From Nemertoderma westbladi (Eukaryota; Animalia; Xenacoelomorpha): a stretch of DNA of 64,000 nucleotides. A program made the position numbers and the translations under genes. Each line of letters begins with the position of its first letter. Position 1 is the stretch's first letter. Under the pieces are notes generated by a model, which saw only the letters and a list, made by a program, of their open reading frames with translations, ran no database searches and was not told the DNA's origin. The DNA is taken from the NCBI GenBank assembly GCA_032718475.1, contig JAUCBJ010000859.1, positions 1-64,000 on the forward strand, in the 5' to 3' direction. Shown in pieces: positions 849 to 61,516 of the stretch.

Positions 849-969
849 TAACATAGGCGACACTAACAACGGAAACACATTGTTAAATCCGGGATATTAC
901 ATAATGACAGAGAGTTTGGCACCCATGTACGAAGATGTCATGTCTTATGCAGTACGTGAATTACAAACG
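849..969 (+). CDS. Beta/gamma-crystallin-like gene, internal exon A (end of a Greek-key motif)
   Basis: Poly-T+CAG acceptor ending at 848 and CG|GTAAGT donor at 970. Reads NIGDTNNGNTLLNPGYYIMTESLAPMYEDVMSYAVRELQT, resembling LLxPGxY...DxxS. Ends in phase 0, matching exon B. Confidence 0.6.
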
Positions 970-1064
970 GTAAGTGATTCGAATTTCGTCTATAAACGGA
1001 CTGGTTCCTTTATCGAAAAGGTCGACAAAGGAACCATGGTAACTTGGGAAACAAACTGGAATGA

Positions 1065-4000
1065 TTTACTGTGGAAGATCAGCCATGGCGGTGAACAGGC
1101 ATTCCTTTAGGAAACAGAATGGAAGGGTTTACTGTGGAAGATCAGCCATGGCGGTGAACAGGCATTCCTTTAGGAAACAGAATGGAAGGGTTTACTGTGG
1201 AAGATCAGCCATGGCGGTGAACAGGCATTCCTTTAGGAAACAGAATGGAAGGGTTTACTGTGGAAGATCAGCCATGGCGGTGAACAGGCATTCCTTTAGG
1301 AAACAGAGTGGAAGGGTTTACTGTGGAAGATCAGCCATGGCGGTGAACAGGCATTCCTTTAGGAAACAGAGTGGAAGGGTTTACTGTGGAAGATCAGCCA
1401 TGGCGGTGAACAGGCATTCCTTTAGGAAACAGAGTGGAAGGGTTTACTGTGGAAGATCAGCCATGGTGGTGAACAGGCATTCCTTTAGGAAACAGAGTGG
1501 AAGGGTTTACTGTGGAAGATCAGCCATGGGGGTGAACAGGCATTCCTTTAGGAAACAGAGTGGAAGGGTTTACTGTGGAAGATCAGCCATGGGGGTGAAC
1601 AGGCATTCCTTTAGGAAACAGAGTGGAAGGGTTTACTGTGGAAGATCAGCCATGGGGGTGAACAGGCATTCCTTTAGGAAACAGAGTGGAAGGGTTTACT
1701 GTGGAAGATCAGCCATGGGGGTGAACAGGCATTCCTTTAGGAAACAGAGTGGAAGGGTTTACTGTGGAAGATCAGCCATGGCGGTGAACAGGCATTCCTT
1801 TAGGAAACAGAGTGGAAGGGTTTACTGTGGAAGATCAGCCATGGGGGTGAACAGGCATTCCTTTAGGAAACAGAGTGGAAGGGTTTACTGTGGAAGATCA
1901 GCCATGGCGGTGAACAGGCATTCCTTTAGGAAACAGAGTGGAAGGGTTTACTGTGGAAGATCAGCCATGGGGGTGAACAGGCATTCCTTTAGGAAACAGA
2001 GTGGAAGGGTTTACTGTGGAAGATCAGCCATGGCGGTGAACAGGCATTCCTTTAGGAAACAGAGTGGAAGGGTTTACTGTGGAAGATCAGCCATGGGGGT
2101 GAACAGGCATTCCTTTAGGAAACAGAGTGGAAGGGTTTACTGTGGAAGATCAGCCATGGCGGTGAACAGGCATTCCTTTAGGAAACAGAGTGGAAGGGTT
2201 TACTGTGGAAGATCAGCCATGGCGGTGAACAGGCATTCCTTTAGGAAACAGAGTGGAAGGGTTTACTGTGGAAGATCAGCCATGGGGGTGAACAGGCATT
2301 CCTTTAGGAAACAGAGTGGAAGGGTTTACTGTGGAAGATCAGCCATGGCGGTGAACAGGCATTCCTTTAGGAAACAGAGTGGAAGGGTTTACTGTGGAAG
2401 ATCAGCCATGGGGGTGAACAGGCATTCCTTTAGGAAACAGAGTGGAAGGGTTTACTGTGGAAGATCAGCCATGGCGGTGAACAGGCATTCCTTTAGGAAA
2501 CAGAGTGGAAGGGTTTACTGTGGAAGATCAGCCATGGCGGTGAACAGGCATTCCTTTAGGAAACAGAGTGGAAGGGTTTACTGTGGAAGATCAGCCATGG
2601 CGGTGAACAGGCATTCCTTTAGGAAACAGAGTGGAAGGGTTTACTGTGGAAGATCAGCCATGGCGGTGAACAGGCATTCCTTTAGGAAACAGAGTGGAAG
2701 GGTTTACTGTGGAAGATCAGCCATGGTGGTGAACAGGCATTCCTTTAGGAAACAGAGTGGAAGGGTTTACTGTGGAAGATCAGCCATGGGGGTGAACAGG
2801 CATTCCTTTAGGAAACAGAGTGGAAGGGTTTACTGTGGAAGATCAGCCATGGGGGTGAACAGGCATTCCTTTAGGAAACAGAGTGGAAGGGTTTACTGTG
2901 GAAGATCAGCCATGGGGGTGAACAGGCATTCCTTTAGGAAACAGAGTGGAAGGGTTTACTGTGGAAGATCAGCCATGGGGGTGAACAGGCATTCCTTTAG
3001 GAAACAGAGTGGAAGGGTTTACTGTGGAAGATCAGCCATGGCGGTGAACAGGCATTCCTTTAGGAAACAGAGTGGAAGGGTTTACTGTGGAAGATCAGCC
3101 ATGGGGGTGAACAGGCATTCCTTTAGGAAACAGAGTGGAAGGGTTTACTGTGGAAGATCAGCCATGGGGGTGAACAGGCATTCCTTTAGGAAACAGAGTG
3201 GAAGGGTTTACTGTGGAAGATCAGCCATGGGGGTGAACAGGCATTCCTTTAGGAAACAGAGTGGAAGGGTTTACTGTGGAAGATCAGCCATGGGGGTGAA
3301 CAGGCATTCCTTTAGGAAACAGAGTGGAAGGGTTTACTGTGGAAGATCAGCCATGGGGGTGAACAGGCATTCCTTTAGGAAACAGAGTGGAAGGGTTTAC
3401 TGTGGAAGATCAGCCATGGCGGTGAACAGGCATTCCTTTAGGAAACAGAGTGGAAGGGTTTACTGTGGAAGATCAGCCATGGGGGTGAACAGGCATTCCT
3501 TTAGGAAACAGAGTGGAAGGGTTTACTGTGGAAGATCAGCCATGGGGGTGAACAGGCATTCCTTTAGGAAACAGAGTGGAAGGGTTTACTGTGGAAGATC
3601 AGCCATGGGGGTGAACAGGCATTCCTTTAGGAAACAGAGTGGAAGGGTTTACTGTGGAAGATCAGCCATGGGGGTGAACAGGCATTCCTTTAGGAAACAG
3701 AGTGGAAGGGTTTACTGTGGAAGATCAGCCATGGGGGTGAACAGGCATTCCTTTAGGAAACAGAGTGGAAGGGTTTACTGTGGAAGATCAGCCATGGGGG
3801 TGAACAGGCATTCCTTTAGGAAACAGAGTGGAAGGGTTTACTGTGGAAGATCAGCCATGGGGGTGAACAGGCATTCCTTTAGGAAACAGAGTGGAAGGGT
3901 TTACTGTGGAAGATCAGCCATGGCGGTGAACAGGCATTCCTTTAGGAAACAGAGTGGAAGGGGTTTACTGTGGAAGATCACCCATGGTGGAGAACAGGCA

Positions 4001-5465
4001 TTCCTTTAGGAAACAGAGTGGAAGGGTTTACTGTGGAAGATCAGCCATGGCGGTGAACAGGCATTCCTTTAGGAAACAGAGTGGAAGGGTTTACTGTGGA
4101 AGATCAGCCATGGCGGTGAACAGGCATTCCTTTAGGAAACAGAGTGGAAGGGGTTTACTGTGGAAGATCACCCATGGTGGAGAACAGGCATTCCTTTAGG
4201 AAACAGAGTGGAAGGGTTTACTGTGGAAGATCAGCCATGGCGGTGAACAGGCATTCCTTTAGGAAACAGAGTGGAAGGGTTTACTGTGGAAGATCAGCCA
4301 TGGCGGTGAACAGGCATTCCTTTAGGAAACAGAGTGGAAGGGGTTTACTGTGGAAGATCACCCATGGTGGAGAACAGGCATTCCTTTAGGAAACAGAGTG
4401 GAAGGGTTTACTGTGGAAGATCAGCCATGGTGGTGAACAGGCATTCCTTTAGGAAACAGAGTTGGAAGGGTTTACTGTGGAAGATCACTCATGGTGGTGA
4501 ACAGGCATTCCTTTAGGAAACAGAGTGGAAGGGTTTACTGTGGAAGATCAGCCATGGTGGTGAACAGGCATTCCTTTAGGAAACAGAATGGAAGGGAATA
4601 CTGTGGAAGATCACCCATGGCGGTGAACAGGCATTCCTTTAGGAAACAGAGTGGAAGGGTTTACTGTGGAAGATCACCCATGGTGGTGAACAGGCATTCC
4701 TTTAGGAAAAAGAGTGGAAGGGTTTACTGTGGAAGATCAGCCATGGCGGTGAACAGGCATTCCTTTAGGAAACAGAGTAGAAGGGTTTACTGTGGAAGAT
4801 CAGCCATGGTGGTGAACAGGCATTCCTTTAGGAAACAGAATGGAAGGGAATACTGTGGAAGATCAGCCATGGCGGTGAACAGGCATTCCTTTAGGAAACA
4901 GAATGGAAGGGTTTACTGTGGAAGATCACCCATGGCGGTGAACAGGCATTCCTTTAGGAAACAGAGTGGAAGGGTTTACTGTGGAAGATCACCCATGGCG
5001 GTGAACAGGCATTCCTTTAGGAAACAGAGTGGAAGGGTTTACTGTGGAAGATCACCCATGGTGGTGAACAGGCATTCCTTTAGGAAACAGAATGGAAGGG
5101 AATACTGTGGAAGATCACCCATGGTGGTGAACAGGCATTCCTTTAGGAAACAGAGTGGAAGGGTTTACTGTGGAAGATCACCCATGGTGGTGAACAGGCA
5201 TTCCTTTAGGAAACAGAATGGAAGGGAATACTGTGGAAGATCACCCATGGCGGTGAACAGGCATTCCTTTAGGAAACAGAGTGGAAGGGTTTACTGTGGA
5301 AGATCACCCATGGTGGTGAACAGGCATTCCTTTAGGAAACAGAATGGAAGGGAATACTGTGGAAGATCACCCATGGCGGTGAACAGGCATTCCTTTAGGA
5401 AACAGAGTGGAAGGGTTACTGTGGAAGATCACCCATGGTGGTGGAACAGGCCATCCTTTGGGAAA
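1065..5465. repeat. 63-bp tandem minisatellite, ~70 copies, with higher-order structure
   Basis: Unit TTTACTGTGGAAGATCAGCCATGG[C/G/T]GGTGAACAGGCATTCCTTTAGGAAACAGAGTGGAAGGG. It generates the 982/81/330-aa repeat ORFs. Confidence 0.98.
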
Positions 5466-5789
5466 CAGATCTTCCATGTATAATAATGACAAAATACCAC
5501 AAGTAATAGATAGTTAACCAGTAATAGCTCAAAGTCTGAGTCCAAAGTGATGCTCAAAGAACTCTGTGTCGAAATCGGTACCAAACATACGGCTACACCA
5601 AGGTGCAACCTACACCTAATCATGTTGTCCTACACCGTAAAAACTATGCGCTATCTCAATTGAAGATATTGCTAACATTGAACTATTAGACGCGCAGACG
5701 TTATTGCGCCATATAGTCTGCGTATCGCTCGAGCATAGCATTATATTAAATTAGTATTTACAATTATTACTGAATAATATTCTTCCAGC

Positions 5790-9299: not shown

Positions 9300-9750
9300 C
9301 ACCAACGGCCCTGTCAAAGTGTTCAATTCCCAGTTTACTGACTTCCTCCTCTCCCCTTCACATGGCTAAGATATAGTCAAGAGGTGGACTAAGAACTCTG
9401 ATGTTCATCGGTTTGCCATGATTCTATTCCCTATCAACCTGTGTGGTGCCCACTGGACACTGGGTGTTTACTTTCCTTCAAAGAAATTAATCTCGTACTT
9501 CGACTCATTTGGGGCTAAAAACGCAAGACATGTCAATGCGCTAAGTGAATGGGTGTTGCTCGAGGCCACCAAATGGGGACATAATGCAGAACGCATTACC
9601 ATCGAATTCCCGATAGTCTCTCGCATGCAGAATAACAACTATGATTGCGGAATCTATGTATGCCACTTTGCAAAAGTATGTATTGAAGGTGGATTGCAAT
9701 TTTCAACCAATGATACGGCAATGAAGTCCTTTAGGGAGGAACTCCAGACC
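9300..9750 (+). pseudogene. Ulp1/SENP-family (C48) cysteine protease domain of the non-LTR element
   Basis: FNSQF...VKRWTK..D...ILFPINLCGAHWTL...YFDSFG...QNNNYDCGIYVC, with the H-D-Q-C catalytic residues in order. One upstream stop. Confidence 0.85.
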
Positions 9751-10699
9751 ATGGTTGAAGGGAACTTGGTGAATGTCAATGCCCCACCTAGACCAACCCA
9801 ACCGGCTCACACTGCACCGGGCCCCATCCTGTCAGCATCAGATCCACCACAGTCCACCCCTTGCGCTGAAAATGTCCAACAGAACAGCTCACCCGTCCCC
9901 TGTGATGAAGGTGTCCCTCAGGGCAGCTCACCCCCCATTAGTAGTCAGCCCATTGGAAATGGCCAATGTTGCTCTGGGAGTCCTTTGGTTGAGTCTGACG
10001 GAGTCATTGACCTCCCCCCAATGACAAGCATTCCATGTGAGAGCCCCATTCTCGCGCGGTCCACACCCCTGACAGGCACACAGCCCATCCCATTGCCTTC
10101 CCTCCCCAATTCGCAACCCCTGAACCATCCACCATGCCCCTCCCCAAGTATTCAAGGGATTTCCCCCACAGTTGGCTCCATCCACTCAACCACATGCCCA
10201 GCATGCTTATGACCAATGTCAGCCAACCCCTCAGGGGTTATCAGATCACACAAAACAAAGTTGAAAACCAGGTGCCCTGGATCGGGCCAATCCCCCTTGC
10301 TCCCATTCTTTCCCTAACAACACAACCCCGACTCGTCCACCCAACCTTTCAGTGCTCCAACCAGTCATGTAACCACTCCCACACTACCCGGTCACGTCCC
10401 GCTCCCACTGCCTAACCCGCCACATTATCCACACACCCACCCGACCCCCGATGCCCCAAGCCCCGAAGCCACTTTACCTTCCATTGACTCCATTCTTCAG
10501 ACTAAGATCCCCACCCTCCGCCATATACCCAAGTCCACCTGGGACCTATTGGCTGGAGCTGTTGCTTCAACCCTTGAAGAGATATCTTCTGACCCCAGCA
10601 ACACCAACTCCTGGTCCAAGGTATTCCTACTGGCTCCCTGTACCCTGGCCAATCCCAAGAAGAGGACGATGTCACTGGAGGGACACCAAGCAGCTTGTG

Positions 10700-11756
10700 A
10701 AGAAGTCACATCTTCGTAGGTGGTTGTTGGGTGACTATCTGGGTCTCTGGAATGAGGCTGTCGCTTCTAGTGCAAGTGCAAGCCAGCCAAGTCTTCCCCT
10801 GACTCTATTAGGGAGTCCAATGCCAGGCGGGCCCATCCGGCCATGGCAGATGGGCAGTACCGGAAGGCAGTGAGAGCCTTGTTGTCAGAGGGTCTAGCGG
10901 ATACAAACGAGTCCACTTTCCTGTCCATGCTGGACAAACAGCCGCAGGCTCCTCCTCCGGTCCTACCGACTGGCCCAGTCCCATAACCCGCAATGATTTC
11001 AACCGAGTCTGTGGCCAAGGCTATCAGCTCATTCCCGCTTGGCTCCGCACCGGGCCTGTCTCAGCTGAGACCGACCCACTTAAAGGAATGTATTTCCTAC
11101 CCATCTCCCGCTTGGGCCACCCGGGCGCTTTCCGCATTAAGTCGCTTCACCACGCAGTTGGCTGTGGGAGAGGCTCTACCCGACATCATGAAATACCTTT
11201 GCGGTGCATCCCTCTTCCCTTGTAAGAAGAAGGATTGTGGTCTCCGCCCCATCGCTGTGGGTGAGACCCTAAGGAGACTAACATCAAAGTGCCTCGCTAC
11301 CGGGGTCGCCCCCATCACTTCCACATACCTATCTCCCTTACAGGTGTGTCAGTACGCCTTTAGGATGTGAGGCACTAGTTAGAGGCATCTCCGCTACTTT
11401 GGACGACTCTTCTATCCCCCCGGACTCGAAGTGGATATTGCTGGTTGACTTCAAGAATGCGTTTAACTCTATCGACCGAGCAAGCATGTTCACTGAAATC
11501 TGCCAGAACATCCCTTCAATCTCAGCTTGGGTTGAGTCCTGTTATGAAGTACAGGCCATCTTGTGGCTGGGGGATCGGAAGATCCTAAGCTGCTGTGGAG
11601 TCCAGCAGGGAGACCCTCTTGGTCCTCTTGCGTTTGCCTGCACCCTTCACCCAGTGGCTGTTCTCATTCAGAAGGAGGTTCCCAACCTCATGTTCTCAGG
11701 TTGGTACCTGGACGACGGTACACTCTGTAGCCCACCTGTGGACATACTAAAGGCGC
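10700..11756 (+). pseudogene. CRE-like reverse transcriptase, 5' part (frameshifted)
   Basis: ORFs 10993-11370 and 11399-11761 carry SAPG, RPIAVGE, DFKNAFNS, QQGDPLGP and YLDDG. Confidence 0.9.
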
Positions 11757-11835
11757 TGTAGTATGGGCCTAAGGAGGCCATGGCCTGACTGGAGGATATA
11801 GATGTAATATACAACTCGCCGGCTGGTATACTACA
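11757..11835 (+). repeat. 5' LTR (79 bp)
   Basis: TG...CA with an 8-bp terminal inverted repeat; 4 differences from the 3' LTR. Confidence 0.9.
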
Positions 11836-11856
11836 TTGACCTACTTGATTGGTCTT

Positions 11857-13241
11857 ATGGCGAAATGCTCCGTAACCGCACCTCTAGATTGCAACGCCGA
11901 CAATATGGCTTTAGAATATGATGAATGGCGCCAGTCTTTCGAGTTCTGGGCCGACGCTACAAAACTTAGGGCTGACGACCATGCAGCTGCTGAGCAAGTA
12001 GGCGCTTTTATGACCTGTATTGGGAAACTGGCCCAACATATCGCTGCTCAAAACTTCCAGTACACTGATCAGCGCCCAAGAATGTTAGACAACTTACTTG
12101 AAGACTTTGCTCAACATTTTGCTCCTCAACATAACTTATTGGTAATGCGCCACAGGTTCATCTCTCGGCGACAAAATGAAGGTGAGTCAATTTCTACATA
12201 TCAATTTCTGCACTTCATCAATTATTAACCCTGTGTGAGCTCGATAAGGAAACACCCCAGACTCAAATTAGGGATGCTTTCATATGTGGAGTTCGTGATG
12301 AGGAGCTACATAGGCAACTACTTCCGCAACCTTCAGAATCAACACTTATTCATATTAAAGGTATAGATAGTGCATTTGAGGCAGCATTCTCTGGTGATGT
12401 AGAAATCGTTAGGCGTGATGCAGTACTGGTAGCTAACCAGGGAGCAGTCTGTGCAATGCAACAACGGCAATCACAGTCTTATCAAATTAATGATTGCCAA
12501 TTCTGTGGTGGTTCCCATAGGAAAGGATCTTGCCCAGCCTATGGATGCCATTGTAAAGCTTGTGGAGAGTTACACCATACTCCTCTCTCCAATCTATGTA
12601 AAAGATCTAATGGAACTAAACCTAGGTTTGCTTCACGACCTCAAACTATCCAACGCCAGCAACCACCATCTTGGCGTAACAATGCCGGGGGCAACCGGTA
12701 CAGACCCTCTAATATCAAGTTCATTGAGCAACCGTATTATAATGAGGCTGATAATAATGAGGGTGAGCCTCTTGTAGATCCTATGGATATGGATAATGAA
12801 GAGGATGGTTGCGATATTTCTCAAATTAGTGATATTATGGCAGTAACAAACGCATCAGAAAATTTCTGGCGGATTGACATTTCTGTTTCAGGCAAAGTAA
12901 GGTCAAAGATATTAAATTTTCTTGTAGATAGTGGAACTCAGCATACAATAATTCCTGCACAGTATATCAACCATAGTATTATTGATCCTGGCAATGGCCA
13001 GAAACTTTATGGGTATATGTCAAGCCATTGTTTTCCGGTAGTTGGGAAAGCAAATGTAAATCTTACTTATAATTCATCAACAGTCCAATCAGATGTGTTT
13101 ATTATCCATGATGCCGCATTTCCTTTATTGGGTCTGAATGATAGTATTAAGTTGGCCTTGCTTTCATTTGATCCACTTCCTGAACCAAGGGGTTACTTGC
13201 ATTCAATCGGCTCAGTGCTTGATACTAAAGAGGCAAAATGA
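11857..13241 (+). pseudogene. gag: Gypsy gag (Cys/His knuckles) and aspartic protease, disrupted
   Basis: RHRFISRRQNEGESI, CQFCGGSH..CPAYG..CKACGELHH, FLVDSGTQH. Internal stop/frameshift near 12228. Confidence 0.85.
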
Positions 13242-13247
13242 ACAGAG

Positions 13248-15702
13248 TTGGGAGATCATGTTTTACCACCAATGAAGGTCCCTCCACTTCATATTAATAT
13301 AAACCCTAATGTACAGCCTGTTCAACAGCCTCTTCGAAGAATTCCCTTTGGGCTGATTGATGAGCTTAAAGCTGAGATAGATCGGTTATGTAGGGAAGGA
13401 GTTATTATAAAGGTTCAAAGTGATGAGTCTCCAGCAGAGTGGCTGAGTCCTGCTGTAATATCAAGATGTAAAAATGGGAAGATGAAGTTATATGCCTAGA
13501 TTTGCGTGAAGTTAAGGGGGGGTACACCATTTTGCTCAAAAATATGTCGAAATTTTTTTTATTATCTATTATAATGCACCATTGAATGGTGTTTCCAAAT
13601 CTGAAAACCGAAAATAGCTCTTTTAGTTTTTAAGTTATAACAATTTCCATTTAGGGATTCCTATTGAAATTACTATTACTATATATAATGAAAGGTCGAA
13701 TATCTCAAAATATTTTTTTTATGAAATTGTCAACTTCAAAACCCTACTACTTCTACAATTTTTGAGCAATTAGTCTGAAACTTTCTGTGGGTGTCTCAAT
13801 AGCCACCCTGCATAAAAGTATCAGACAACTTTTCGAAATTTTTTGTTAATATAATTTAATACTATTTATAAAAAAACCTAAAAATTAGCATAAATTTGCA
13901 GCGCCACCTAGCGGTGCAGAATTATTTTAACAAAATTTCGCCTGATAGTTATATTGCCCCATCTTTGATCTATCATATAAAAAAACTTTCATGTGATTAG
14001 GTTCAAAACTGTAAAAGCCTTAGGGTTTTAAGCGCAACCAAGTTTTTTTTATTGTTAACTAATATTAAATAGCGAAAAAAAAAATGTTTCTGACCTGTCA
14101 TGTAGAATAGCATCTTAGGCACCTATATTCCAAATTATAGCCAAAACCAAACAATTTTGAAATGCTGAGAGAGATAAATCGAAGAGTTGACCGAAAATGG
14201 TGTACCCCCCCTTAATAAGGCAGTAATTCGCCGTCGGGTAATTATCCCAACCCCAGAAGAACTATTTATTAAACCTGCAGGTTGTATGATTTTTTCAAAA
14301 TTGGATGCATATTCCGGTTTTCACCAGATACTATTGGATAAAGAATCTAGTCGGTTGACAACTTTCATACTTCCCTTTGGCACTTATAGATACATACGTC
14401 TTCCCTTTGGCATTGCCAATGTCCCTGAAGATTACCACAGTACTATGTCGAATGCCGTAGCTGATATTTCAGGATGTGCTGTGATTGAAGATGACATATT
14501 GATTTATGCAAAATTCCAATCTGATCATGACAATATTTTGGATAGAGTCCTCAAGCGATGTGATGACATGTCTATTAAACTGAATAAAGACAAATGTGAA
14601 TTTAATAAACCAGAGATATTATATCAGGCAAAGGATTGAGGCCAGATCCCGATAAAGTGACATCAATAGAGAATATCTTCCACCAACACAACCAATGACT
14701 CAGTCTGATGTATTTGGGCCCTGGGAATGGTTAGCTATTGATTGTGTTAAAATCAAAGGAGAGAACTATATGATCCTTATTGATTATGGCTCCCGGTACC
14801 TAGAAGTAGCACCGATTACAAGTTCCAAGAGTAGGAACATCATCAGTCATTTAAACACAATTTTTGCTCGTTTTGGGGTCCCCAAATCTCTAGTTGGTCC
14901 TAAGGCACTTGTATCTGATAATGCACAGGAGTTTCGATCGGAAGAGTTCCGAGCATATTTACATTCAATCAACTGCAAACTTGTTGAAATCTCAGCACGA
15001 TAAGCACAATCAAATGGTATGGTTGAACGTTGCCATCGCACCATTAAGAAGATCATGAAAGCCTCTTCAGAACAAGGGGGGTCATTTCTTTCCCACCTTT
15101 CTACAGTATTATTCACATTGAGGAATGCTCCTCATCGGATAACTGGAGAAATGCCATCAATAGTGTTGTTTCAACACATTTCCCGCTTCCCTCCAACTCT
15201 TCTTCCTCAAGTGATTGGACCTCCAGCAACCCCATCAGCTAAGTATGTGAAAAACCGTGAGCGCATTGTTCATGATTATGATCGACAGCGTAGTTCCAGA
15301 AGGTTGGACCCTATTACTGAGCAGCATCCAGTGATGGTGAAAAATTTTGATAATCGTGGATACTCTTATCAGGGCCATTGGATTAAAGGCTCCGTAGGCA
15401 ATAAAGTTATATTGGAGAGTCCTACTGGTAAAATTATCACTAGAAATCACCATATGATTCGCCCAGTCGCAGAACCACACCAACTTCAGTATCAGCGACA
15501 GATACCCTCTGGCATATTTACACCATCCACAAGTTGTGGTAACCAAATGCCCAATGAGACCAACCCAGAAGATCCTGGAGACACTACACTACATCAAGAC
15601 ACTACAGAACTCGCTACCTCGCAACGGGAGAGCTGCTGTGGGAGTAAACGATATCCATCACGCCAACGTCGACCTCCCGAATACCTGGGATTCGAGGATT
15701 GA
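13248..15702 (+). pseudogene. pol: Gypsy pol: RT (split by a MITE) and integrase; RNase H and HHCC region deleted
   Basis: PVQQPLRRIP, WLSP, LDLREVN|KAV, FSKLDAYSGFHQI, RLPFG, IEDDILI. Then directly PWEWLAID, VSDNAQEF, NGMVER. Confidence 0.88.
13516..14211. mobile_element. Non-autonomous Kolobok-like DNA transposon, copy 1
   Basis: TTAA TSD (13512-15 and 14212-15). TIR GGGGGGGTACACCATTTT / AAAATGGTGTACCCCCCC with RR...YY termini. Second copy at 27967. Confidence 0.88.
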
Positions 15703-15863
15703 CTCTAACAGAGGGATAGAACTGTTAACAAGGACTCATTAGGAATATATATATATATATTGAGGCATGGACTCTAACCATAACTGTTATCATTAACTCT
15801 ATGACCTTTTGTCTTTGTTAAATCTATTATATAGTTTTTTGTTTTGAGTAAGGAAGGGAGTAG

Positions 15864-15942
15864 TGTAGTATGTACCTAAGGAGGCCATGGCCTGACTGGA
15901 GGATATAGATGTAATATACAACTGGCCGGCTGGTATGCTACA
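15864..15942 (+). repeat. 3' LTR (79 bp)
   Basis: Matches 11757-11835 and is preceded by a polypurine tract. Confidence 0.9.
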
Positions 15943-15947
15943 GGAGC

Positions 15948-17392
15948 TAGACATCCTCGAGCGCTTGAGTTTTCTCATGGGCCTCACTTTAAACCGGTCC
16001 AAGTCCCAGATCTTCATCCCGCAGTGTGCAGATCCAGCCCTGAATGTTCTTCCAACATCGATCCCCATCCTGTCAGTTGGTATAACTCTGTTGGGCTCCC
16101 CTATTGGCCCAGCATCATTCTGTGAGATTGCAGTGTTGCATCGAGTCAGCAAGCTCAGGGAGATCATCACCCGCCCAACTGATCTGAATGATTCCCAGAT
16201 GGAGACTACTCTGTTGGGGTCATGCCTGTCTCTGCCAAAGGTTGTGTTCGCCCTCCGCTGTTGCCCTGAAAACTTTATCATGGGGGCCTCAGCGGAAATT
16301 GACTCCACCATTTGGGAGGCACTTTCGGACTTAGTCGGTGGCTCTTTATCCGACTGGTCCTGGGAGAAGGCTGCTCTCCCAACCTCACTGGGTGGCCTAG
16401 GTCTACGCAAAGCGGCCGATCATGCCTCCGCAGCCTACATCGTGTCCTCCTGTCAGTCTGGTCAACTGGTCAGCCGGATCCTCGGCCATCCCCCCTCTGA
16501 CCCCAACCTCTCTGGAGCCCTCGACCTACTGGCAATTTCTGCCAAGAACCCCGAGTGGACCTCTACCAATGCACTCCCCACCCCAATCACTCAGAAGAAC
16601 CTCTCTCATTCCATTGACTTGGCCAACCATGAGAACCTACTGTCCACCACTCCTGACAGCCGCTCCATCGCCCAGCAAACTCCACCGCACTACCTCATGC
16701 TGGGGATTGGCTACAAGTAATACCGTCCACCTCCCTCGGCCTCCACATTCTGGACAGGGAGCACCAGACTTGCATGCAGTACTGGCTAGGTGTTCGGATG
16801 TCATCAGAGCCTACCCCCTGTCTGGTCTGTGGTTCAGTTTCGGACACCTATGGCGACCATAACGTGGCTGTGGTGGTTCGGGTGATTGTATATGTCGCCA
16901 TGACTCCGGGATGCACTCTACTCTGCAGCCCAATCCGCGGCCCGGAGGGAGGTACCAGGCATAGTGGCCGGTTCCCGCAGCAGGCCTGCCGACGTCTATC
17001 TACCAAACTGGCGCTGGGGGCAACCCATGGCACTGGACGTCACTGTCATTTCGAGCCTTCAGGCCCTCACCAACCAGGGCGCCGCTTCAAACCCCGGCCA
17101 TGCTCTGACAGTAGCTCGGGACCGCAAATTGGCTGCCCACGCCACAGAATGCAGGTCCGCAGGGGTGGGTTTCACCCCACTCGTTATCGAAGCCCTGGGT
17201 GGGTGGGAGGCCTCATCCATCTTAGTCATCCGGGAGGTCGCCCGCCTTCAGGCCATTCACCATGTCCTCAGGCTCAGTCATGCCTCTAGGCAGATTTTTC
17301 AACGCCTGGCCGTCTGTCTCTGGAGGGGCAATGCCGCCATGTGGCTCTGCCGTTCCCCTACTGTCGCCCCTTTCGTGGACGGGGTACTGTAG
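15948..17392 (+). pseudogene. CRE-like RT C-terminus, zinc knuckle and restriction-like endonuclease
   Basis: GLTLNRSKS, LLGSPIG, AALPTSLGGLGL, CLVCG...GDH, RPADV...ALDVTV, FTPLVIEALGGW, RGNA. Two frameshifts. Confidence 0.88.
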
Positions 17393-18555: not shown

Positions 18556-18710
18556 GTTGAAGGAGACTGTGTAGCACCTGAGATTACTTTCTACAATGAC
18601 GAAAACTTTGGCGGAGAGTTTTTCACAATCAACGGAGCTAGTAGATATTATGGGTTTATAAATGCTCACCAGGACAACGCCGTTTCATCTTTCAAAATCC
18701 GATGTGGAAT
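18556..18710 (+). CDS. Beta/gamma-crystallin-like gene, exon B
   Basis: TTTAG acceptor and GTGAGT donor. VEGDCVAPEITFYNDENFGGEFFTINGASRYYGFINAHQDNAVSSFKIRCG is a Greek key (FxxxNFxG...SS). Ends in phase 2. Confidence 0.9.
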
Positions 18711-19015: not shown

Positions 19016-21752
19016 ATTGCCTATTACTTCTGGCCAATTACTGAGAAAGTTGAAACCATTTCAAATTTTGAATAACCAACAACAGTCAAAGCTTTGAAGA
19101 CATTTTTTGGAATGGCCGGATTTTATCACCGGTTCGTTCCCAATTTTTCAAAGATTGCAGCGCCTTTAACGGATATGACCCGTGTTTCCAATGATACTGG
19201 AACTGTGAGTAAGTCTAAAATCCTCCAGTGGGATGAAAGCTCTATTATAGCCTTCCGTGATTTGAAGGACGTATTAAAAAATTATGTTACGCTCTCATTC
19301 CCAGAGCCAAACGCGAAAATTGAACTCACAACTGATGTCTTGGGTGTCGCCGTTGGTGCAGTGTTACACCAAATTGTAGGAGAAAGCAAACAACCTTTAA
19401 CATTTGTCTCGACTAAAATTACCCCCCTAGAAGCGAACAAATCAGCGTTTGATCGCGAACTTTTGGCGATATTTTTATCGCTTATACATTTTCACTGGTT
19501 GATTGGTACAGCATTTGTGATAAAAACAGATCACAAATCATTACTTCATGCAATTCAAACGAAGAAACCAATTCCACAGCAAGCAAGATGGTTGTCGTAT
19601 ATTTCAAAATTTAATTGTTCTATAGAACATGTGTCAGGTGCCTCCAACGTGGTGGCTGATTCATTGTCAAGAAACTGCGAAAATATTAGTGTGGAATTTG
19701 ACGAGGCGTTAGCTCAAGCTCAGTTAAAAGACAAAACTTTAATTAATTTTTTCAATACCACCACTTTACCGTTGAGTAAGGTAAAGATCGGTCATTCAAT
19801 TCTCGTGTGTGACAATTCAAAGGAATATCTCCGACCTTATGTGCCAACGGATATGCGGTTTCAATTGTTTAAACAAATGCATGAATTAGCCCACACCGGG
19901 GCGCGGCCAACTTTAAACATGGTATCAGATGATAATACATTTGGCCTGGAATGAGAAAGGATATTAGAAAGTAGTTTAGACAATGTTTATGTTGTCAACA
20001 ATGTAAATTACTCGAAAAAAGACAAAATGTGACAGTGACTTAAGACATACGACTCATGAGTTACCAGTGAGTCGCGAGCCTACGTAATCTTAAATATCAT
20101 CGAAACATTAAACTAATAAAGACCTACTACCCTATGTAATGCAGCATCGATCTACTTAGAAATAAACAATACCAGAGAAGTGTGGGAGTTTATTGCATAT
20201 TATAGAAGTTGGTAAATATGAAGCTGATGGAGATGAATCAGATTTAGAGGATCACTATTAGATTCTGGTGAACGAACAACGAACAAACAACATTACATAA
20301 TAAATTAAATATGGTTAATATTAAATTTTGATTTACAGCTGTTTTTATTTGAAACGCTGTAATAAAGTTTATATTTTTCAATTCATTGTTTGCAATATTT
20401 AGTTTTAGAAATATTTCTAAACAAGTTTAAAAAATTTAGAAATCACTATTTTTATTTATAAATTTCACCAACATATTTAGAAAAAAAAAACCCTGGCCCA
20501 CAGAAATCGTGTCGGATAGTGTGCTCAATTCGAATCGGCTGTCTGGGCCGAACTAATGCGATTATTGGGAATAACCCGGAAACGAACTACTTCATATAAC
20601 GAGCAATGTAACGGTGCTATAGTACAGAGCGTTTTCATCGAACTCTAAAAAACCCTTTACGATGTCACGCAACGAACTCAACATGGTCGGACTCATTACC
20701 TTTGACATTACTTGGGGTACGTTATAGTATATCTCCAGATGGGTTCAGTCCGAAGCAAATGGTGTACGGCGGAACAGTAGATCTCCCTTATTAATCATTT
20801 GCACCTGTTGAACCAGTTTCAAATCCTAGAAATTTACCGGATTATATGAAAGATCTATTTAATACTATAAATTCTTTCGCAGCACCAGTTAGAAACTACA
20901 ATGCGCCAACCTATGTGTCCAATGTGATGACAGATATAAAACACGTTTGGATACGTAATGACCGTCTTAAATCATCGCTTAGCGAAAGATATACTGGTCC
21001 ATATGAGATCATCGACCGTGATGAAAATACTGTTACCATCGAAATAAAAGGCAAACCAAATATAATTTCTATTGATAGAACAAAGATCTTATAAATAATG
21101 AATTTAAACCTGGAACTGTTGTCATGCAAAACAACCTTGTTGGCCTTGTTGGGGATTATCCTTGTTGGCCAGGAGTTACTAAACCGAATCCAGACTGCCA
21201 ATCATCTAAAGTGGTGGTGTCGTTTTTTGGAAGCGATCGTGAAGGGTTGATATCAAGGAACAGTTTAACATTATTCAACTCAGATGGAAACATCATGGAA
21301 ACATCAACTCACAATGGAAACATATCAAGTATGAAATCCGAGCTTTTAAGAAAGCGATAGAACTTGCCCAACGTGATTTACTAACTAGAAATACTAATAT
21401 TGTTGTAAGGAAACAAAAAAAATTGTGAGATTTAAAGTACAACCGTCGTATAAATTTTTTTAAAGTATCTCACGTTCCGCTACTAATAAGAGGGGTCATG
21501 TAAGGTCTAGAATTAGTAATACTGTAATACTTGTGGTGGAATAACGCACAGTCGCCCCACAGAGTGTACCGTAGGCCTATGTCCCTGATGGTAGGAGATT
21601 AGTGAATACTGTCTACAGTTCTGGGATTCTGTGAGTCAGTGATTTATTTATGCTTTATATTGTTACACGTGTTGTCTTAAATACTACTAACTATTAAATA
21701 TGATTAAATTACATTTATTGATTATGATATTATTATTCATACATCACTTATA
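19016..21752 (+). mobile_element. 5'-truncated Gypsy relic: RT end, RNase H, integrase, PWWP domain, PPT and 3' LTR
   Basis: FFGMAGFYHRFVPNFS, LTTD..GVAVGAVL, DRELLAI, TDHKSL, NVVADSLSR, HELAHTG, CxxC, ERFHRTLK, RYTGPYEI. PPT AAGAGGGG, then putative LTR TGTAAG at 21499 to ~21752. Unrelated AT-rich insert at ~20010-20500. Confidence 0.85.
21082..21400 (+). pseudogene. PWWP domain at the C-terminal end of the Gypsy integrase
   Basis: EFKPGTVV...GDYPCWPGV...KVVVSFFGSDREGLISRNSLTLF, then after a frameshift KYEIRAFKKAIELAQ. Confidence 0.75.
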
Positions 21753-23437: not shown

Positions 23438-23578
23438 GTGGATGTTATATGATAATGGCAATTTCAATGGCGATTCCATTACTAATGCCCATTTACCTCG
23501 AGAACTGCTTGGGCCAGGTGAATATACTGGTGGAGCCTTCTGGTCAACTTCTATACTCTCTGATAACACCATCTCCAG
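23438..23578 (+). CDS. Beta/gamma-crystallin-like gene, exon C
   Basis: TTTTTAG acceptor and AG|GTAGGT donor, phase 2-2. (M)WMLYDNGNFNGDSITNAHLPRELLGPGEYTGGAFWSTSILSDNTIS(S). Confidence 0.9.
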
Positions 23579-25300: not shown

Positions 25301-28300
25301 GTAAGTTGTAATTTATTTATAAACTTATAAATCTAACTGTAAGCAGGCGTCTAGTGCAGACACCAATAAAAAATGGTACATCCTGCACTTGGTGCAGATG
25401 CAGACCACAGTACAAAAAGAGAAAACACTAAATTCTACATATACTAACTGGCAAGGTAAATTATATAGTTTGAAAATTTACAATACATTTGCAGTTGATC
25501 CGACTCAATTATTATTATTGAATTGGATGTCCAGGATTTGTAAGTCACATAGAAAAATTTGGAAACTTAATTTACTTAACTTAACTTATTTAGAGCAGCG
25601 GTAGAACCATTACCATTACTTCTATATGGGAGTCAATGCTGTGCTCTTAGCTTAGCTCTTGCTCAGAGGATACAAAATCTCTGCATGGAATTTATACAAG
25701 AATTCCACATCAGTTTCTCTATGACAAGTGTTGAACTATGTACGTCTCTGCCAATCATACACGCTCCTTTCTCTGTCGAAATTCCAACAGATCTAATCGT
25801 TGACGAGCTAAACAGACGAGCTAATCGTTCTAATTTATAAGTCAAACAGAAATAACCAAAACAATAAATCTGATTGGCTTCCAAAGCTACTTAACATGAG
25901 TGCGGATGTCTTAGCACTCAGCGTTCACTTTCCACAGAGAAATACAGGTAGTTTGCTGGGCGGAACAATGTCGAATGTGAGAATATTTTAATATGCAAAA
26001 GGTGTGATATTAATTTCCCTAATGTCGAAACCTGTCCTTGGGCTGATTGAATTCAGCGATTTTTACTACTGTGCTACCCTAGCTACCGCTGTAAACTGCT
26101 GACCCGCTACTTTCAAATAACCGCCTAACGTCGAATATTGTAAGGTATTTCTAAACGTAATTTACCCAACTATTCTCCGCTATGCAGCGTACAAACTCTT
26201 AATTTTATTCTAAGTGCTAAAGTGCCTCAAATACACAGAATTGCATACTAATTACTAAGTATTCCAGAATGCGTATTACTAATTAATTACGCTACTGAGT
26301 TATTCTAGCAACAGCCTAAATTCTGTATTATTGACCTAAAATCAATTAACAAGCATAAATTAGAAATAGAAACAATCAAGAAAATAGCGCCTATCTAAAC
26401 ATCACAATCGATAATCAGGCACTTTCTAAACAACACAAGATAAAGCAGCGTTAGCAACAGTAATCCGCCAATAACCTTACAGTGTTAGTGGCGGTTGTCA
26501 AACTGGAGTAGCATTAGTGTAGCACTAGTGTAAGAAGCCAAGGACACCCAAACTAAATGCGGTCTTCCTAGCTAAACCCACTAAATAGCGCTACAGCCCA
26601 ACAACACTGAGACGAAATCTTGTTCGCCAGCCCCCTAAAGCCGTATTGACGACCGGTCCCCGGTCCTCTACTTTATTTGATTCGCCCGACCACAACTACT
26701 GGCCCACGCCAGCGTTGCCACACATTGGATCCTCCACCTCTCCTTCCATCGCTTCCAACAGTGCGCCCGCGACGCCTACCGGTACCCTTAGCCCGACATC
26801 CTAAAGTGAGTAATTACCGTATAGGCACAAGCATAACAAACAGTCTGACAGTCGAAAATAAATCTTTATTAGGATTGCTACATTGCAAAGATTAAAGAAA
26901 ATCAAGAGTCAGTTTAAGCAGTCATCATTATTCAAAGTCATAAATCATGTAACAGTAACAGCAGAAATCACCAATTTTTACAATCAATGGAAGTACAAAA
27001 TCACAAGAAGAATTAATAATTCACAACAACAAAACTGTAAGAATGACGCAATATTTTAACCATTGGTCGAACAAAATCCTACTGCTATTAAACCAACCTA
27101 AATAGCTAAACCAATGAGAGAGCCGGATTATGGCTCTCGCCTCTCGAAATCCCTAAACCATTACCATATATGGTAATAAATCTGTCTCGGTGGGCTTATA
27201 GGTCCATCGCCGTAATATTAATTTGGCGATTATTAAAGCTCAATTTTGACGTTAATTTAGTATAACATTGATTTATAGAGAAATACAAATGAAATTAATA
27301 CAAACACACATCAGATTCAAACAATATCAAGAAACGGCAAATTCATATTTTTGTTTTATAAAAGTTTGCCACTGTAAATTAATATGCTAAGGTTTTATTA
27401 TAAAAATTACGTAGGTAGGGCTACATACTGTATAAAATCGGTTGAATATAATGAACTTGTATATTTTATTTTCCCTATCTAATTACGGCTGTACATCAAT
27501 ACGACTTATCTAAATTATTATATACTGTATGATGAGTTGTTTTAGTACACTACGCCATATATCGTAACAACAAGTATAATGCACATATGTATCTCCAACC
27601 CGACACGATAAATCATTGAATGTGTAGCACTATTAGTCTCAACAAGCTGCATTGCTTCACTCGAACAGGGAGAGCAGCCTCCGCTTTAAAGGTACACAAT
27701 CTTGTACTTCCAGCCTCATGGAGAGAATAGGCTATGTTGACAACCCACACCTCTCGGACATAATTCTTTGTTTCGGATCTCAGAAATGAATTCAGCATAC
27801 ACGAAAACCTAAATATATATTTTTTGGACGGCCTAATCTGTGGTACTGTAGAAATTTTTCAAAAAATTTGACTACTTGTAATTTCGAGGTGCACCGTATC
27901 CCGGTAGGAGGCCCTAATCAAATCCCCCCCCCCCCCCCCCCCCCCTTCCGAGTTTAATAGCGTTAAGGGGAGGGGTACACCATTTTGGTCGAAAATATGT
28001 CAAAATTTTGTTATGGTTATACTGCACCATTGAATGGTGTTTCCAAATCTGAAAACCGCTATTTAATAGCTCTTTTAGTTTTCAAGTTATATAAATTTCC
28101 ATTTAGGGAATCCTATTGAAATTACTATTACTATTATGTATAATGAAAGGTTGATTGATTATCTCCAAATATTTTTTTTATGAAATTGTCAACTTCAAAA
28201 CCCTACTACTTCTACAATTTTTGAGTAATTAGTCTGAAACTTTCTGTGGGTGTCTAGATAGCCACCCTGCATAAAAGTATCAGACAACTTTTCGAAACTT

Positions 28301-28694
28301 TTTGTTAATAAAATTTAATACTATTTATAACAAACCTAAAAATTAGCATAAATTTTCATGCGCCACCTAGCGGTGCAGAAATATTTTAACAAAATTTCGC
28401 CTGATAGTTATGTTGCCCCATCTTTGATCTATAATATAAAAAACATTTAATGTGATTAGGTTCAAAACTGTAAAAGCCTTAGGGTTTTAAGCGCAACCAA
28501 GTTTATTTTATTGTTAACTAGTATTAACTAATATTAAGTATCGAAAAATTTTTTTTTCTGACCTGTCAGGTAGAATAGCATCTTAGGCACCTATATGCCA
28601 AATTTTAGCCAAAACCAAACAATTTTGAAACGCTGAGAGTGATAAATCGAAGAGTTGTCCGAAAATGGTGTACCCCCCACCCCCCCCCCCCCCC

Positions 28695-33285: not shown

Positions 33286-33546
33286 TTTTGCGTTTTACGC
33301 TACTGTTAAAGGGACATCACGATACTATATGTATTATTTAATATATGGCATGAGAGCAATATTGCAAGAAGCAATGTCAGTGAGAAGAGGCAAGTCGTTT
33401 CCAAGGTCTACCCAGAGCTTGGTTAAGCCGAGACACGAGGATCTGAACTTTGCATTCCTAATACTCTACTTACCAATAATACCAATAATACCAATAATAC
33501 TAATAATACAGTGAAATGCAGTCTTCACGCTCCTTATTAATGTCTC

Positions 33547-36500
33547 CTAACTTCTTCCCCACCAAGGGGCGTCGGCGGCGTTGAAGGTCCAGCTACATGC
33601 TGTTACCCTTAGCTGATCGTCCACCTGTCTTTGGTTCCAATCTTTAACGTAAGCTTTGATCTCATTATTGGCGCCAATGAAGTTCGTTCCCTTATCAGAT
33701 CTCATTGTGTTGCTAGTTCCAAAGCGAGCGATCTGTCGGCGTAAACTCAGTATGGAGCTGTTGGTAGATAGATCGTTCACCATATCTAGATGGATCGCTC
33801 TACAAGTCATACAGACAAAGATGACACACCATCGCTTGACTATAGTCCTAGCATGATATACTTCAATAGGGCCAAATAAATCCACACCGGTATTAGTAAA
33901 GGGTGGTTCATAGAAGCTTACTCTGTCCCTAGGTAATTCTGCCTCTCGCTGTGTTAAAGGCCTACTGAATGCTTTCCTACAGGGTATACAGTTCCTAAGA
34001 ACTTGGTTCAGAGCTCTACGGGGTTTATGGAAATAATAGCGAGTTCGAATTTCGCTCAGAACACGTTCTCTACCAGCATGGTAAAGCCTACTGTGAACAT
34101 CTACAATCATCTTGATTTGTATTTCAAGATTTCTAATGAGTATGGGAAATTTAGTGTCAAAGGACAATGGAGCATTAGTTAGTCTCCCTCCAACACGTAT
34201 TAACCCATCTATCATTGTGCTAGAGAAATGATCCCTTAAGCGCATCTGTGGATTTCTCAACAACAAGAAATACTTATCGGAATCTTCATAGCATTGCAGG
34301 AGTCTCAGTATCTGCTTATTGGTTTCTTCATGCTCCTGGTAACTGATCTTCTCCATCAGAAACCTATCTGACACTTTGTATTTGGGAAGATCTTTAATAG
34401 CATGGACCTGCTCGGATGTCAGTGGAGCGGTATCACTAGCGATCTTCGTCCTGGAGTAGTGATGATGGAAGCATCGCTTCAAATACACGACAGCCTTACA
34501 AAGCCGATTCCAGGAGCTATAGTGATTTATCGCTCTCTGCAGGAGAGGTGAGAGTCCCTGCGAGACGTCTGGTGTTCCAGATTTCCAGTCTATTTCTCTG
34601 ATTTCTTCAACAGATTTATTTGCGGCGGGGGAGTTTAGATCCACAGTGTCGTCCCCGGAGATGTGTAGTACAGACAGATCTATCACTGGTTTAAATAACT
34701 TTGATTTACTCGTCCGGGTTTTAGGTTTGACTTTCTCCGCTCCCTTGGCTTGTCTAATCTCAGCTGTGGTGAGATGAGGAGGCCATTCATCCTCTTCTTT
34801 ACTTAGGAAGTCGGGTCCACCTAACCAGTCTGGAGTATCTATCAGTTCTTGAGGAGTTGCTCCTCTGGAGGCGATGTCGGCTGGATTAATCGTCCCAGGG
34901 CAATGTCTCCATTGATCTACATTAGAGCGACTAAGTATAATGGCTACTCTGTTGGTAATGAAGACGCTGAACTGACAGACTTCATTGGTTATATACTCCA
35001 AAACAAGTAAAGCATCGGTCCAATAGACAGTTTTCTCCAGTGGATAGTCGATCTGTTCAGTAACATTCCGGCCGATGGCTGTAGCGTATAGAGCCGCCTT
35101 TAACTCCGCTCGAGGAACTCGTAGTTTGTTGTTTATCAAGGCCTTAGAGGTGACCAAGGCAACTTTAATTTCATCCGGAGTTTCAACCCTCAGGTAGGAA
35201 TACGTGGGGAGAACGTGACCAAAATATGAACGGGAAATCGTAAAGTTCTCGATGGAAGGTAGAGAATCTTCCCATTTCATCCACTTCATTAGTAGTTCTC
35301 CCTTAAGTGGATCATCCCACGAGTGGTTTTCAAGCCACATTTGTTGCACTAAGCTCCGAGCAATCAATATAACTGGGCTAATAAATCCCAATGGATCGAA
35401 ATAAGTGCTCAGGATACTTAGACAAATCCATTTAGTTCTAACTGGATTATCTCGCTGTTTTAACTGGAAAAACAGGATATCTCTCTCCGTGTCCCATTTC
35501 AAACCAAGCGTCTTGGTTTCCGGAAGATCGTCCTTGATAAGGTCCAGATCTTTAACACCTCAGTCTTCTACCGGGATCGATTCCAGAAACTCATGGGAGT
35601 TCCTAGTGAATTTGGTTAGTCGAAATCCACCGCGTCGCAAACACTCTACCGTTCCCTTGGCAACATCAATGGCTTCTTCAACCGATGGGAGGGACTTTAA
35701 ATTGTCGTCCATGTATATATCCCGTTTAATGTTGTCGATAACCGCTTTAGAGAAGGCATCTCAGTTGTCATCAGCAGTGGTACGCACTACTGAACAAGCG
35801 TTCGAGGGGCTCAAGATGATCCCGAAAGCCTGGATGGTCATCCAGTACTCCACCGGTTTTAGGTTGAGATCTCCTTCAGGCCACCACAGAAATTGTAGGC
35901 TGTCTCGATCCCTATCCAGCGCCTTGACTTGTAAGAACATGCCTTCTATATCCGAAGCGAAAGCGATAGAATATTGCCGTAATCTTAATAGTATTCCCAA
36001 CAAGGATTGGAGTAAGTTGGGTCCCGGCAACAATTCGGAGTTCAGGGATTGGCCCATGTAAAGGGCGGAGCCGTCGAACACTACCCAGACTTCATTGGGT
36101 TTACCGGGTTTGGGAACGTAATGATGTGTTAGATAATACATTCTCTTTGTGGTGGGTGTTTCTTCCGGTACTCGCTCCGCGTATCCCCTATTGATGAATT
36201 TCTTCAGCTGGGTCTTATACATTTCCCTGGCTGAGACATTGGCCATAAGACGCTGAAGTAGTTGCGCGATTCTCTTCTCCGCTAAGGGTCGGTTATTTAT
36301 AAAGTTGGGCTCTCGCCGTCGGAACGGAAGACCAATCTCATAGCGACCTTGATCTTTAAGAAAACGGGTAGTCGTTTCCTGAATCTGCTTGGCTCTCTCT
36401 TCCTCAACGGACATGGCCTTGTCATAGGAATTAGGCTCTACGGCTTCTTGAGTAAAGAATCGTACGGCGTGTTCATCGCGAATCTTATTGTTGTATCGAT

Positions 36501-37389
36501 CTATCACCTCGTTCAATTCGTCGTTGTAGTCGAATTGTCCGCCATGATTGATGAGATGGCACAGGTTTACTTGGTTTCGCCAAGTTTAATTTTCGGTGAG
36601 GAGGTCTATTGTATTTTCCTCGTCGAATAATTGATTAATATCGTCATTATCTGAGGAGTATGGTGTTCCCTCAGTTGTGGTTTCTCCCTCACTAATTTTT
36701 TCTTCCCATTCACTCACTTGATGTATCCTCTCTTGAGGAAGTCTTTCCATCAGCGTCCTACGGGAAGGTCCAGTGAAGTACCAACCTACACTCGTTCTTC
36801 CCGCATACGTTTGTAATGGTTGCGGTCGAGCAGGCCGTTTTTCTAATGTATCTAGCGCCTCATGCGCATTTTGGCCGATCAATATCTGTACCCCTGGGTA
36901 GTCGGTGTTGAATCTAGGGATATCATGCTGCTGGGTGAAATGATCTTCATCCCAGTTATAAGGTTCCACTTGGCTGGTAGCAAAGTTCTTTATTGCCACC
37001 ATTTTTACTGACCTTATACTATGTTCTCCTAGTTCATCCTGGGGAGTGGACGACGAGCCTACATAATAATCTGTAGCTACTGTGGATTTCCAAACCTGCA
37101 TAATTCCTGAAAGGTTCAACTTAGTTCGGAACTTGGGTTGTCCAGCAAAGATATCTTCGGCTAGTTCTTTGTCGATGAATGTACCTGTGCTGCCGGAGTC
37201 AAGGAGGGCGTTTACTATTAAACTTTTCCCTAATCCATGGACTCTTAGCTGCACTACAGGGAATTCCAGAATTCCGATGTTGGAAGTTGGCGCTTTCCAA
37301 GATGGTTGTCGGTCCGGAATAGTCGGTTGCGCTTCGTTATCGGTTTCAGTCTCATATGTAAGCGCTCGATATACTGCGGTGTTTATCAT
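33547..37389 (-). pseudogene. pol: BEL/Pao pol: protease, RT, RNase H (peptidase A17-like region) and integrase (C-terminus truncated)
   Basis: LLDSGSTGTFI, VVFDGSA, SLNSELLPGPNL, DIEGMFLQV, YMDDN, FDPLG, NPADIASRG, H..H..C..C, GVDLFGP, SDKGTNF, APWWG. Several stops/frameshifts. Confidence 0.93.
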
Positions 37390-46855: not shown

Positions 46856-46895
46856 TGTATAAAATATTTAAAAGAAAAATATATACCAAACTTTA

Positions 46896-55995: not shown

Positions 55996-56032
55996 TTAAT
56001 ATTTTGTAACAATTTTCAATAATGTTGCAACA

Positions 56033-56416: not shown

Positions 56417-56418
56417 TA

Positions 56419-60252: not shown

Positions 60253-60254
60253 TA

Positions 60255-61514: not shown

Positions 61515-61516
61515 GT

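Follow-up and report, generated by a model that had tools for sequence, protein, structure and literature searches.

A decayed copy of a Ty3/Gypsy lineage with an integrase-linked PWWP domain in the genome of Nemertoderma westbladi

Can a retrotransposon carry a PWWP domain of its own behind its integrase, and what would such a domain do? The question is raised by a stretch of 64,000 nucleotides (nt) from Nemertoderma westbladi (Xenacoelomorpha; GenBank assembly GCA_032718475.1, contig JAUCBJ010000859.1, positions 1 to 64,000 of the forward strand), here called the window. An initial annotation, made from the letters alone, had seen a PWWP-like segment in this window between a Gypsy integrase and a 3' long terminal repeat (LTR). 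The element concerned is a decayed, dead copy of a Ty3/Gypsy lineage whose integrase ends in a PWWP domain. The lineage with the built-in PWWP is confined to one clade; the integrase-PWWP fusion and the lineage are real, and are undescribed as far as the literature search reached.

In the window the PWWP domain survives in two pieces on the plus strand. The beta-barrel core at 21097-21283, with a short in-frame duplication ahead of its YPCWP motif, is identified by Pfam PF00855, by hhalign, by an alignment of relatives and by a fold model; the C-terminal helix at 21330-21377 follows a local duplication, is no longer in frame, and was placed by alignment to the helix of the family. All the motifs quoted in the initial annotation are found where it had put them, in three frames: the GPY motif (20996-21004) and ISIDR (ending at about 21081) share one frame, FKPGTVV..GDYPCWPGV..VVVSFFGS..ISRNSL lies in the next frame after the integrase in an open reading frame (ORF) at 21079-21360, and AFKKAIELA (21342-21368) lies in the third. 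Over 21097-21357, PWWP is the sole Pfam family matched (21.3 bits, E = 3.9e-4); the family predicted at the outset is recovered, at a score that does not reach the curated cut-off of 25.6. When the 2164 six-frame pieces of the window were scored with a profile built from the PWWP domains of the relatives, the core piece came out on top (E = 0.028), and its 11.7 bits were equalled by none of 2000 shuffles (1458 scored, best 5.6). With hhalign, the core receives a probability of 82.7 (E = 9.6e-6); the helix piece on its own is weak (probability 3.8).

The fold model of the window core, which was made with five relatives in its alignment and leans on that alignment rather than being independent of it, has a predicted local distance difference test (pLDDT) score of 70, with five strands at 82-87 outside the duplicated spots. 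All the matches listed by Foldseek for this model are PWWP domains (best E = 4.5e-3). By sequence, the 87-residue PWWP piece of the window found no PWWP match among solved structures and, in a protein search, no match among 31 candidates; P0005 and P0006, which this piece had matched, are unrelated repeat proteins and were deemed spurious.

Sister copies bear on the broken frame. Three DNA runs from two studies contain the stretch, one of which may be the window's own source, and their contigs fall into two variants: the letters of one are those of the window, whereas the other departs from them by a few percent and has about twice the depth (depth served only to separate the variants and is no measure of copy number). 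Because window-identical X1 contigs cover 21033-21209, across the integrase-PWWP joint, and 21226-21386, the window copy is no assembly error. The second variant includes a single 689-letter X2 contig, which links integrase and PWWP core and is longer at the joint by about 100 letters, and a single 401-letter X3 contig covering core, helix and tail. The initial annotation had described the parts as separated only by frameshifts: this holds for the frame breaks, and fails at the integrase-PWWP break, where about 100 letters present in the sister copies are missing. It had counted family copies without the segment as evidence against its reading; the sister copies in the DNA runs carry it. Surplus letters in the window are local tandem duplications. 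All three frame changes that separate integrase, core, helix and tail have a counterpart in the length differences of the sister variant, an agreement with a chance of roughly 1 in 27; a fourth difference preserves the frame. This suggests that the four parts share one frame in the sister copies, as judged purely from the lengths of contigs that may stem from different copies and in which the letters of the joint are not visible.

The rest of the element is a remnant that retains the Pol order of Ty3/Gypsy elements, namely the end of the reverse transcriptase (RT), RNase H and integrase. The RT end, RNase H and integrase zinc finger occupy 19028-20010 on the plus strand (Pfam RT_RNaseH, E = 1.5e-20; Integrase_H2C2, E = 0.007) and match five full-length PWWP-bearing Pol proteins at 49-53% (tblastn). 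At 20008-20495, unrelated high-copy repeat DNA stands in place of about 85 catalytic-core residues: the tblastn gap spans Pol residues 715-799, which make up the initial portion of the catalytic core, contig depth is high here, and sister contigs in X1, X2 and X3 jump over it. The C-terminal half of the integrase, with the GPY motif and an SH3-like end (Pfam SH3_Tf2-1, E = 0.015), follows at 20523-21085 on the plus strand; it matches eight PWWP proteins at 39-46% (tblastn) and holds one frame change and one in-frame stop.

Behind the PWWP helix, translation reveals a C-terminal Pol tail with a stop (21401-21463, plus strand), again in the integrase frame. Its KKIVRF motif (21416-21433) is absent from the initial annotation; the pattern K-x-V-x-F/W occurs within the last 60 residues in seven of the eight PWWP proteins and in 59 of 115 other Pol proteins. 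A polypurine tract-like run (PPT; 21484-21495, plus strand, 10 of 12 letters purine) ends three letters 5' of the 3' LTR, which spans 254 bp (21499-21752, plus strand) and has a TGTAAG start and imperfect inverted ends; related X3 contigs start at 21498 and diverge from the window at 21752. Self-blastn found no partner for this LTR within the window, the 5' end being absent from the copy. Overall, the copy is 5'-truncated, with an interrupted integrase core and four frame breaks near the 3' end, and it is missing gag, protease, nearly all of RT, the 5' LTR and about 85 integrase-core residues.

Unbroken forms of the fusion, which the initial annotation had proposed to seek, exist in protein databases. 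The integrase end of the window matched four proteins among 186 candidates; in the two best matches the integrase is followed by a PWWP. With residues 800-1128 of one of these relatives (P0002) as query, 136 of 1056 candidates matched; PF00855 is present in the top seven (query included) of the 120 matches listed and absent from the other 113. Integrase, linker, PWWP and tail lie in one ORF in eight of 123 proteins (P0001, P0002 and P0007-P0012), five of which also hold RT and RNase H in the same ORF. The Pfam PWWP score is 26.9-53.6 bits in seven of the eight, above the cut-off, and 16.5 bits in P0001, below it. Pfam found no Chromo domain, the mark of a chromovirus, in any of the eight.

The P0002-fragment search favours PWWP carriers, and re-ranking was done with PWWP-free pieces of the window. 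With the RNase H piece, the seven testable carriers fall within the top eight of 123 proteins at 45-54% identity, and non-carriers reach at most 41% among the matches listed; with the integrase piece, all eight carriers fill the top eight of 123. In an RNase H tree of 123 rows (FastTree), the window and seven carriers stand on one side of a branch with support of 100. The same group receives 100/99 in an IQ-TREE analysis (LG+G4, no mixture model) of 28 rows, comprising the window, the seven carriers, the 14 best non-carriers and six chosen others, and here the window is sister to P0008 and P0009 (97/93). P0001 has no RNase H and hence stands outside both trees. The Gypsy lineage with a built-in PWWP that was first proposed from the window is thus borne out by the eight one-ORF fusions, the RNase H grouping with the window and the PWWP fold.

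Beyond this clade the domain was not found. It is absent from the 115 other Pol proteins (next best match to the family profile, E = 0.44) and from 83 related loci (80 metagenome, 3 viral) of a Pol-alignment search; 61 of these loci extend to the integrase end, and 30 continue for at least 450 letters beyond the integrase. A locus search with P0007 found no PWWP-bearing element, the long-tailed outgroup proteins P0100, P0120 and P0121 have no reader domain, and BFVD gave no viral PWWP-like match with E < 0.001. In the ESM Atlas, the integrase-plus-PWWP part scores at most 0.80, giving leads only, and the PWWP alone matches generic PWWP clusters. Separately, P0038, P0124 and P0131-P0133 are retrotransposon Pol proteins labelled 'cleavage and polyadenylation specificity factor subunit 1', an apparent annotation error.

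Members of the clade are 45-63% identical to one another over Pol. Mean identity is 55% in the RNase H-integrase part, 31% in the PWWP and 19% in the linker (rough alignment), and PWWP similarity tracks RNase H-integrase similarity (Mantel test, 63 of 5040 permutations). The C-terminal extension measures 131-225 residues in the clade versus a median of 54 in others. The simplest reading of these sequences would be one capture of the PWWP, long kept. The capture was probably from a host gene, of NSD methyltransferase type.

The fold model of the P0007 PWWP (pLDDT 92.7) has five strands and a long helix. The top Foldseek matches listed for this domain are all PWWP, the best being NSD3 PWWP2 (2daq; TM 0.79, E = 9.5e-7) and the next HRP-2; by sequence, NSD3 and NSD2 PWWP2 come first (PDB 2daq, 4rxj) at about 27% identity. 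NSD2 (PWWP1), NSD3, HRP-2, HDGF and LEDGF score within a few bits of one another with the family profile (31-37 bits), which leaves more than one candidate donor. In LEDGF, the methyl-lysine cage is reported to consist of M15, Y18, W21 and F44, with H48 and E49 alongside and basic residues that bind DNA; positions of the M15 and Y18 type are described as mattering for specificity more than for affinity, and loss of E49 as removing mark specificity; binding of LEDGF to the peptide alone is weak there, at 17 mM (PMC3663649). When these positions are mapped through the HRP-2 alignment, a complete cage of F, Y/W, W and F is found in five of the eight members, and three of the four positions are present in P0012. 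In the window, Y, W and F are present and the first position is obscured by the duplication. All eight domains are basic (isoelectric point 8.3-11.7), with basic residues ahead of the C-terminal helix, where LEDGF has the DNA-contacting K73-K75.

What, then, would the domain do for the element? It lies where chromoviruses carry the chromodomain, which steers integration, and this position argues for a part in site choice. That the PWWP anchors the integration complex to chromatin of one sort or another is probable; given tethering, a preference for methylated lysine 36 of histone H3 (H3K36me) is moderately favoured. The joint proposal, that the domain tethers the complex to nucleosomes and so biases insertion to H3K36-methylated, transcribed chromatin, is offered tentatively. 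With greater reserve, the whole may be cast as an animal LTR clade that captured its PWWP once from an NSD-type gene and aims integration at the H3K36-methylated bodies of transcribed genes. In such a mechanism, the element protease would cut Pol and release integrase, linker and PWWP as one protein. Binding would be two-point, as for LEDGF, with the cage on methyl-lysine and the basic patch on nucleosomal DNA, and several PWWP copies per integrase multimer would add avidity. The complex would be held at the bound mark and insert near the bound nucleosome.

Several observations weigh against this proposal. The cage is partly or largely degenerate in three of the eight members (P0012, and eroded in P0001 and P0010), and the E49 position is Arg in the window, Asp in one of the five cage-complete members and Lys or Arg in the other four. 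Among solved structures, NSD3 and NSD2 PWWP2 come nearest; for NSD1 PWWP2, one report describes the protein NONO as a partner and no binding to H3K36me2 (PMC12539602), and NSD2 PHD5-PWWP2 is reported to recognise different marks (PMC12870971). As to the single capture, the integrase-only tree gives the same clade at just 74. The window PWWP is an outlier (20-30% identity to five members), and since it is weak against the family profile (11.7 bits) and lacks the loop insertion of the family, a later replacement or second capture may have occurred in the window's sub-branch.

Other accounts of the domain fit parts of this evidence. The one that survives best, although unlikely, is a mark-blind anchor, in which the basic surface of the PWWP would hold the complex on DNA or nucleosomes and raise efficiency, with no mark chosen. 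The basic character of eight of eight domains, the residues corresponding to LEDGF K73-K75 ahead of the helix, the degenerate cage in three of eight and the replacement of most cage-flanking acids by Lys or Arg all agree with such an anchor; it does not explain why five of eight members keep the four aromatic cage positions at just 27-46% domain identity. The retention of specificity-type cage positions suggests a ligand (after PMC3663649).

The ligand need not be H3K36me. If the pocket recognises a different mark, or a host protein other than a histone, as is reported for NSD PWWP2, another chromatin class would be targeted. The best sequence and fold matches of P0007 to NSD3 and NSD2 PWWP2, together with the published reports on NSD1 and NSD2 PWWP2, lend this some weight; it is nevertheless rather improbable, because NSD2 PWWP1, HRP-2, HDGF and LEDGF score nearly as well (31-37 bits) and the identity to PWWP2 is about 27%.

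Improbable to a further degree is a PWWP without any part in site choice, serving particle assembly, nuclear retention or silencing evasion, or persisting as a decaying passenger. Erosion of the cage in P0001, P0010 and P0012, divergence of the PWWP faster than that of the RNase H-integrase part and the standing of each member as a singleton cluster would be expected of a passenger, but the domain is in frame in eight of eight clade members across deep divergence, is better conserved than the linker and sits where chromoviruses carry their reader. That a host PWWP fragment lies by accident beside or inside a dead element, or that the locus is mis-assembled, is very improbable despite the three frames of the window pieces and a Pfam score below the cut-off, given that sister contigs bridge integrase to PWWP, the fusion recurs in eight independent ORFs, the PPT and LTR lie outside the segment, and identical contigs confirm the letters of the window.

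If insertion is indeed biased to H3K36-methylated chromatin, the clade would be the first among retroelements to have an H3K36me targeting module of its own, hard-wiring what HIV borrows from LEDGF and forming an active-chromatin mirror of the chromoviruses; the element-encoded integrase readers known so far direct insertion to silent chromatin. A survey of transposon-chromatin fusions argues, of bromodomains, that transposons seldom acquire readers of active marks since such targeting should be harmful (bioRxiv 10.1101/2021.11.30.470311). A lineage that has retained its PWWP over such deep divergence would put that argument to a natural test, and would be a case of convergence on the lentiviral LEDGF strategy. 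The proposal predicts that young copies are enriched in H3K36me3 gene bodies relative to PWWP-less sister families in the same genome, and cage-intact versus cage-eroded members provide a built-in comparison.

The window copy itself lies in a putative intron. The putative exon upstream (18556-18710, plus strand, with AG and GT boundaries) would encode the opening half of a domain resembling beta/gamma-crystallin (weak Pfam Crystall match, E = 0.044; Inhibitor_I36, E = 0.011), and a 3953-nt X5 contig matches 18555-18713 alone, not the exon flanks. A putative downstream exon (23438-23578, plus strand) follows a pyrimidine tract and AG, and has no Pfam match by itself. The two delimit a putative GT-AG intron of 4727 nt that encloses the element, and the joined exon frame is open, which fits the intronic position given in the initial annotation; by eye, the joined exons resemble what we take to be a crystallin-type (beta/gamma-crystallin) motif. 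An exon paralogous to this putative crystallin-like gene is present in all four DNA runs compared. As a single insertion in an intron that also contains several unrelated repeats, the copy is no evidence of targeting.

The remainder of the window is repeat-rich; its repeats, together with spliceosomal-type introns, fit an animal genome. A second, unrelated Gypsy-like element lies at 11757-15942, with direct repeats of at least 79 bp at its ends (95% alike); it is split by a repeat that recurs at 27969-28678 and is nested in a non-LTR element, and the family profile found no PWWP at its integrase end. Non-LTR retrotransposon-like ORFs with RT and a restriction-like endonuclease, presumably of the CRE/NeSL type, lie at 9370-11761 and 15896-17392 and are preceded by an ORF for a Ulp1-family protease (Peptidase_C48, E = 1.5e-15). 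At 931-5480 stands a tandem array of about 70 units of 63 bp (98-100% identity) with frames open over most of its length. The minus strand holds LTR element fragments with long open frames at 33500-38400, which we take to be BEL/Pao-like, and two elements resembling long interspersed nuclear elements, with endonuclease and RT frames, at 39700-48750. A Maverick/Polinton-like cluster of intact-looking ORFs at 54033-62510 includes a P-loop ATPase (Pox_A32, E = 7e-4), an rve integrase (E = 1e-10), an adenovirus-type protease (E = 3.5e-5) and a 437-residue ORF without a Pfam match, which may encode a capsid.

No description of a retroelement-encoded PWWP was found in a search of the full-text literature that covered mostly titles and the beginnings of abstracts, with Repbase, Dfam, GyDB and subscription journals outside its scope. 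The survey cited above lists Chromo, PHD, SNF2_N, SET 'and others' among 823 candidates; its accessible text does not name a PWWP fusion, and its Supplementary Table 6 may hold cases (bioRxiv 10.1101/2021.11.30.470311). PWWP does not occur in a preprint on DAM-LTR elements (bioRxiv 10.64898/2026.05.21.726589). Another paper deals with a host PWWP gene that has taken up an insertion (PMC3978060).

Among known systems, chromoviruses such as MAGGY are alike in having a histone-reader domain after the integrase GPY motif and before the PPT and 3' LTR, and their C-terminal chromodomain reportedly guides integration (PMC5053271, citing Gao et al. 2008; bioRxiv 10.1101/2021.11.30.470311). Unlike chromoviruses, the present lineage has a PWWP instead of a chromodomain, its backbone probably groups with CsRn1-like elements, and its predicted preference is for transcribed chromatin rather than H3K9-methylated heterochromatin. 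The CsRn1 clade (CsRn1, Boudicca, PwRn1, AgCR) is defined by a CHCC (CX2HX9CX3C) Gag signature and a tRNA-Trp primer site, and a chromodomain is reported not to be found in its elements (PMC2582038). CHCC is present in 58 and the tRNA-Trp site in 28 of the 80 metagenome loci, the nearest PWWP-less relatives; the trees hold unnamed relatives only. Pol order and the GPY motif are the same as in that clade; the longer C-terminal extension of the PWWP clade sets it apart.

Captures of host chromatin modules by retrotransposons are reported elsewhere, including PHD in cnidarians, MBD in arthropod elements, DNMT and DAM (bioRxiv 10.1101/2021.11.30.470311; 10.64898/2026.05.21.726589), and the present fusion follows the same general strategy. 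The domain itself is most like NSD2/NSD3 PWWP2 (2daq, 4rxj) in fold and sequence, including the loop after the PWWP motif; unlike these, it shares only about 27% identity with them and is not part of a methyltransferase. As for HIV-1 integrase with LEDGF/p75 (and HRP-2), a PWWP is linked to an integrase, and the LEDGF PWWP is reported to tether lentiviral integrase to H3K36me3 chromatin (PMC5053271). In HIV-1, however, the PWWP belongs to a separate host protein that is joined through an integrase-binding domain, whereas here it is part of the same element-encoded polypeptide.

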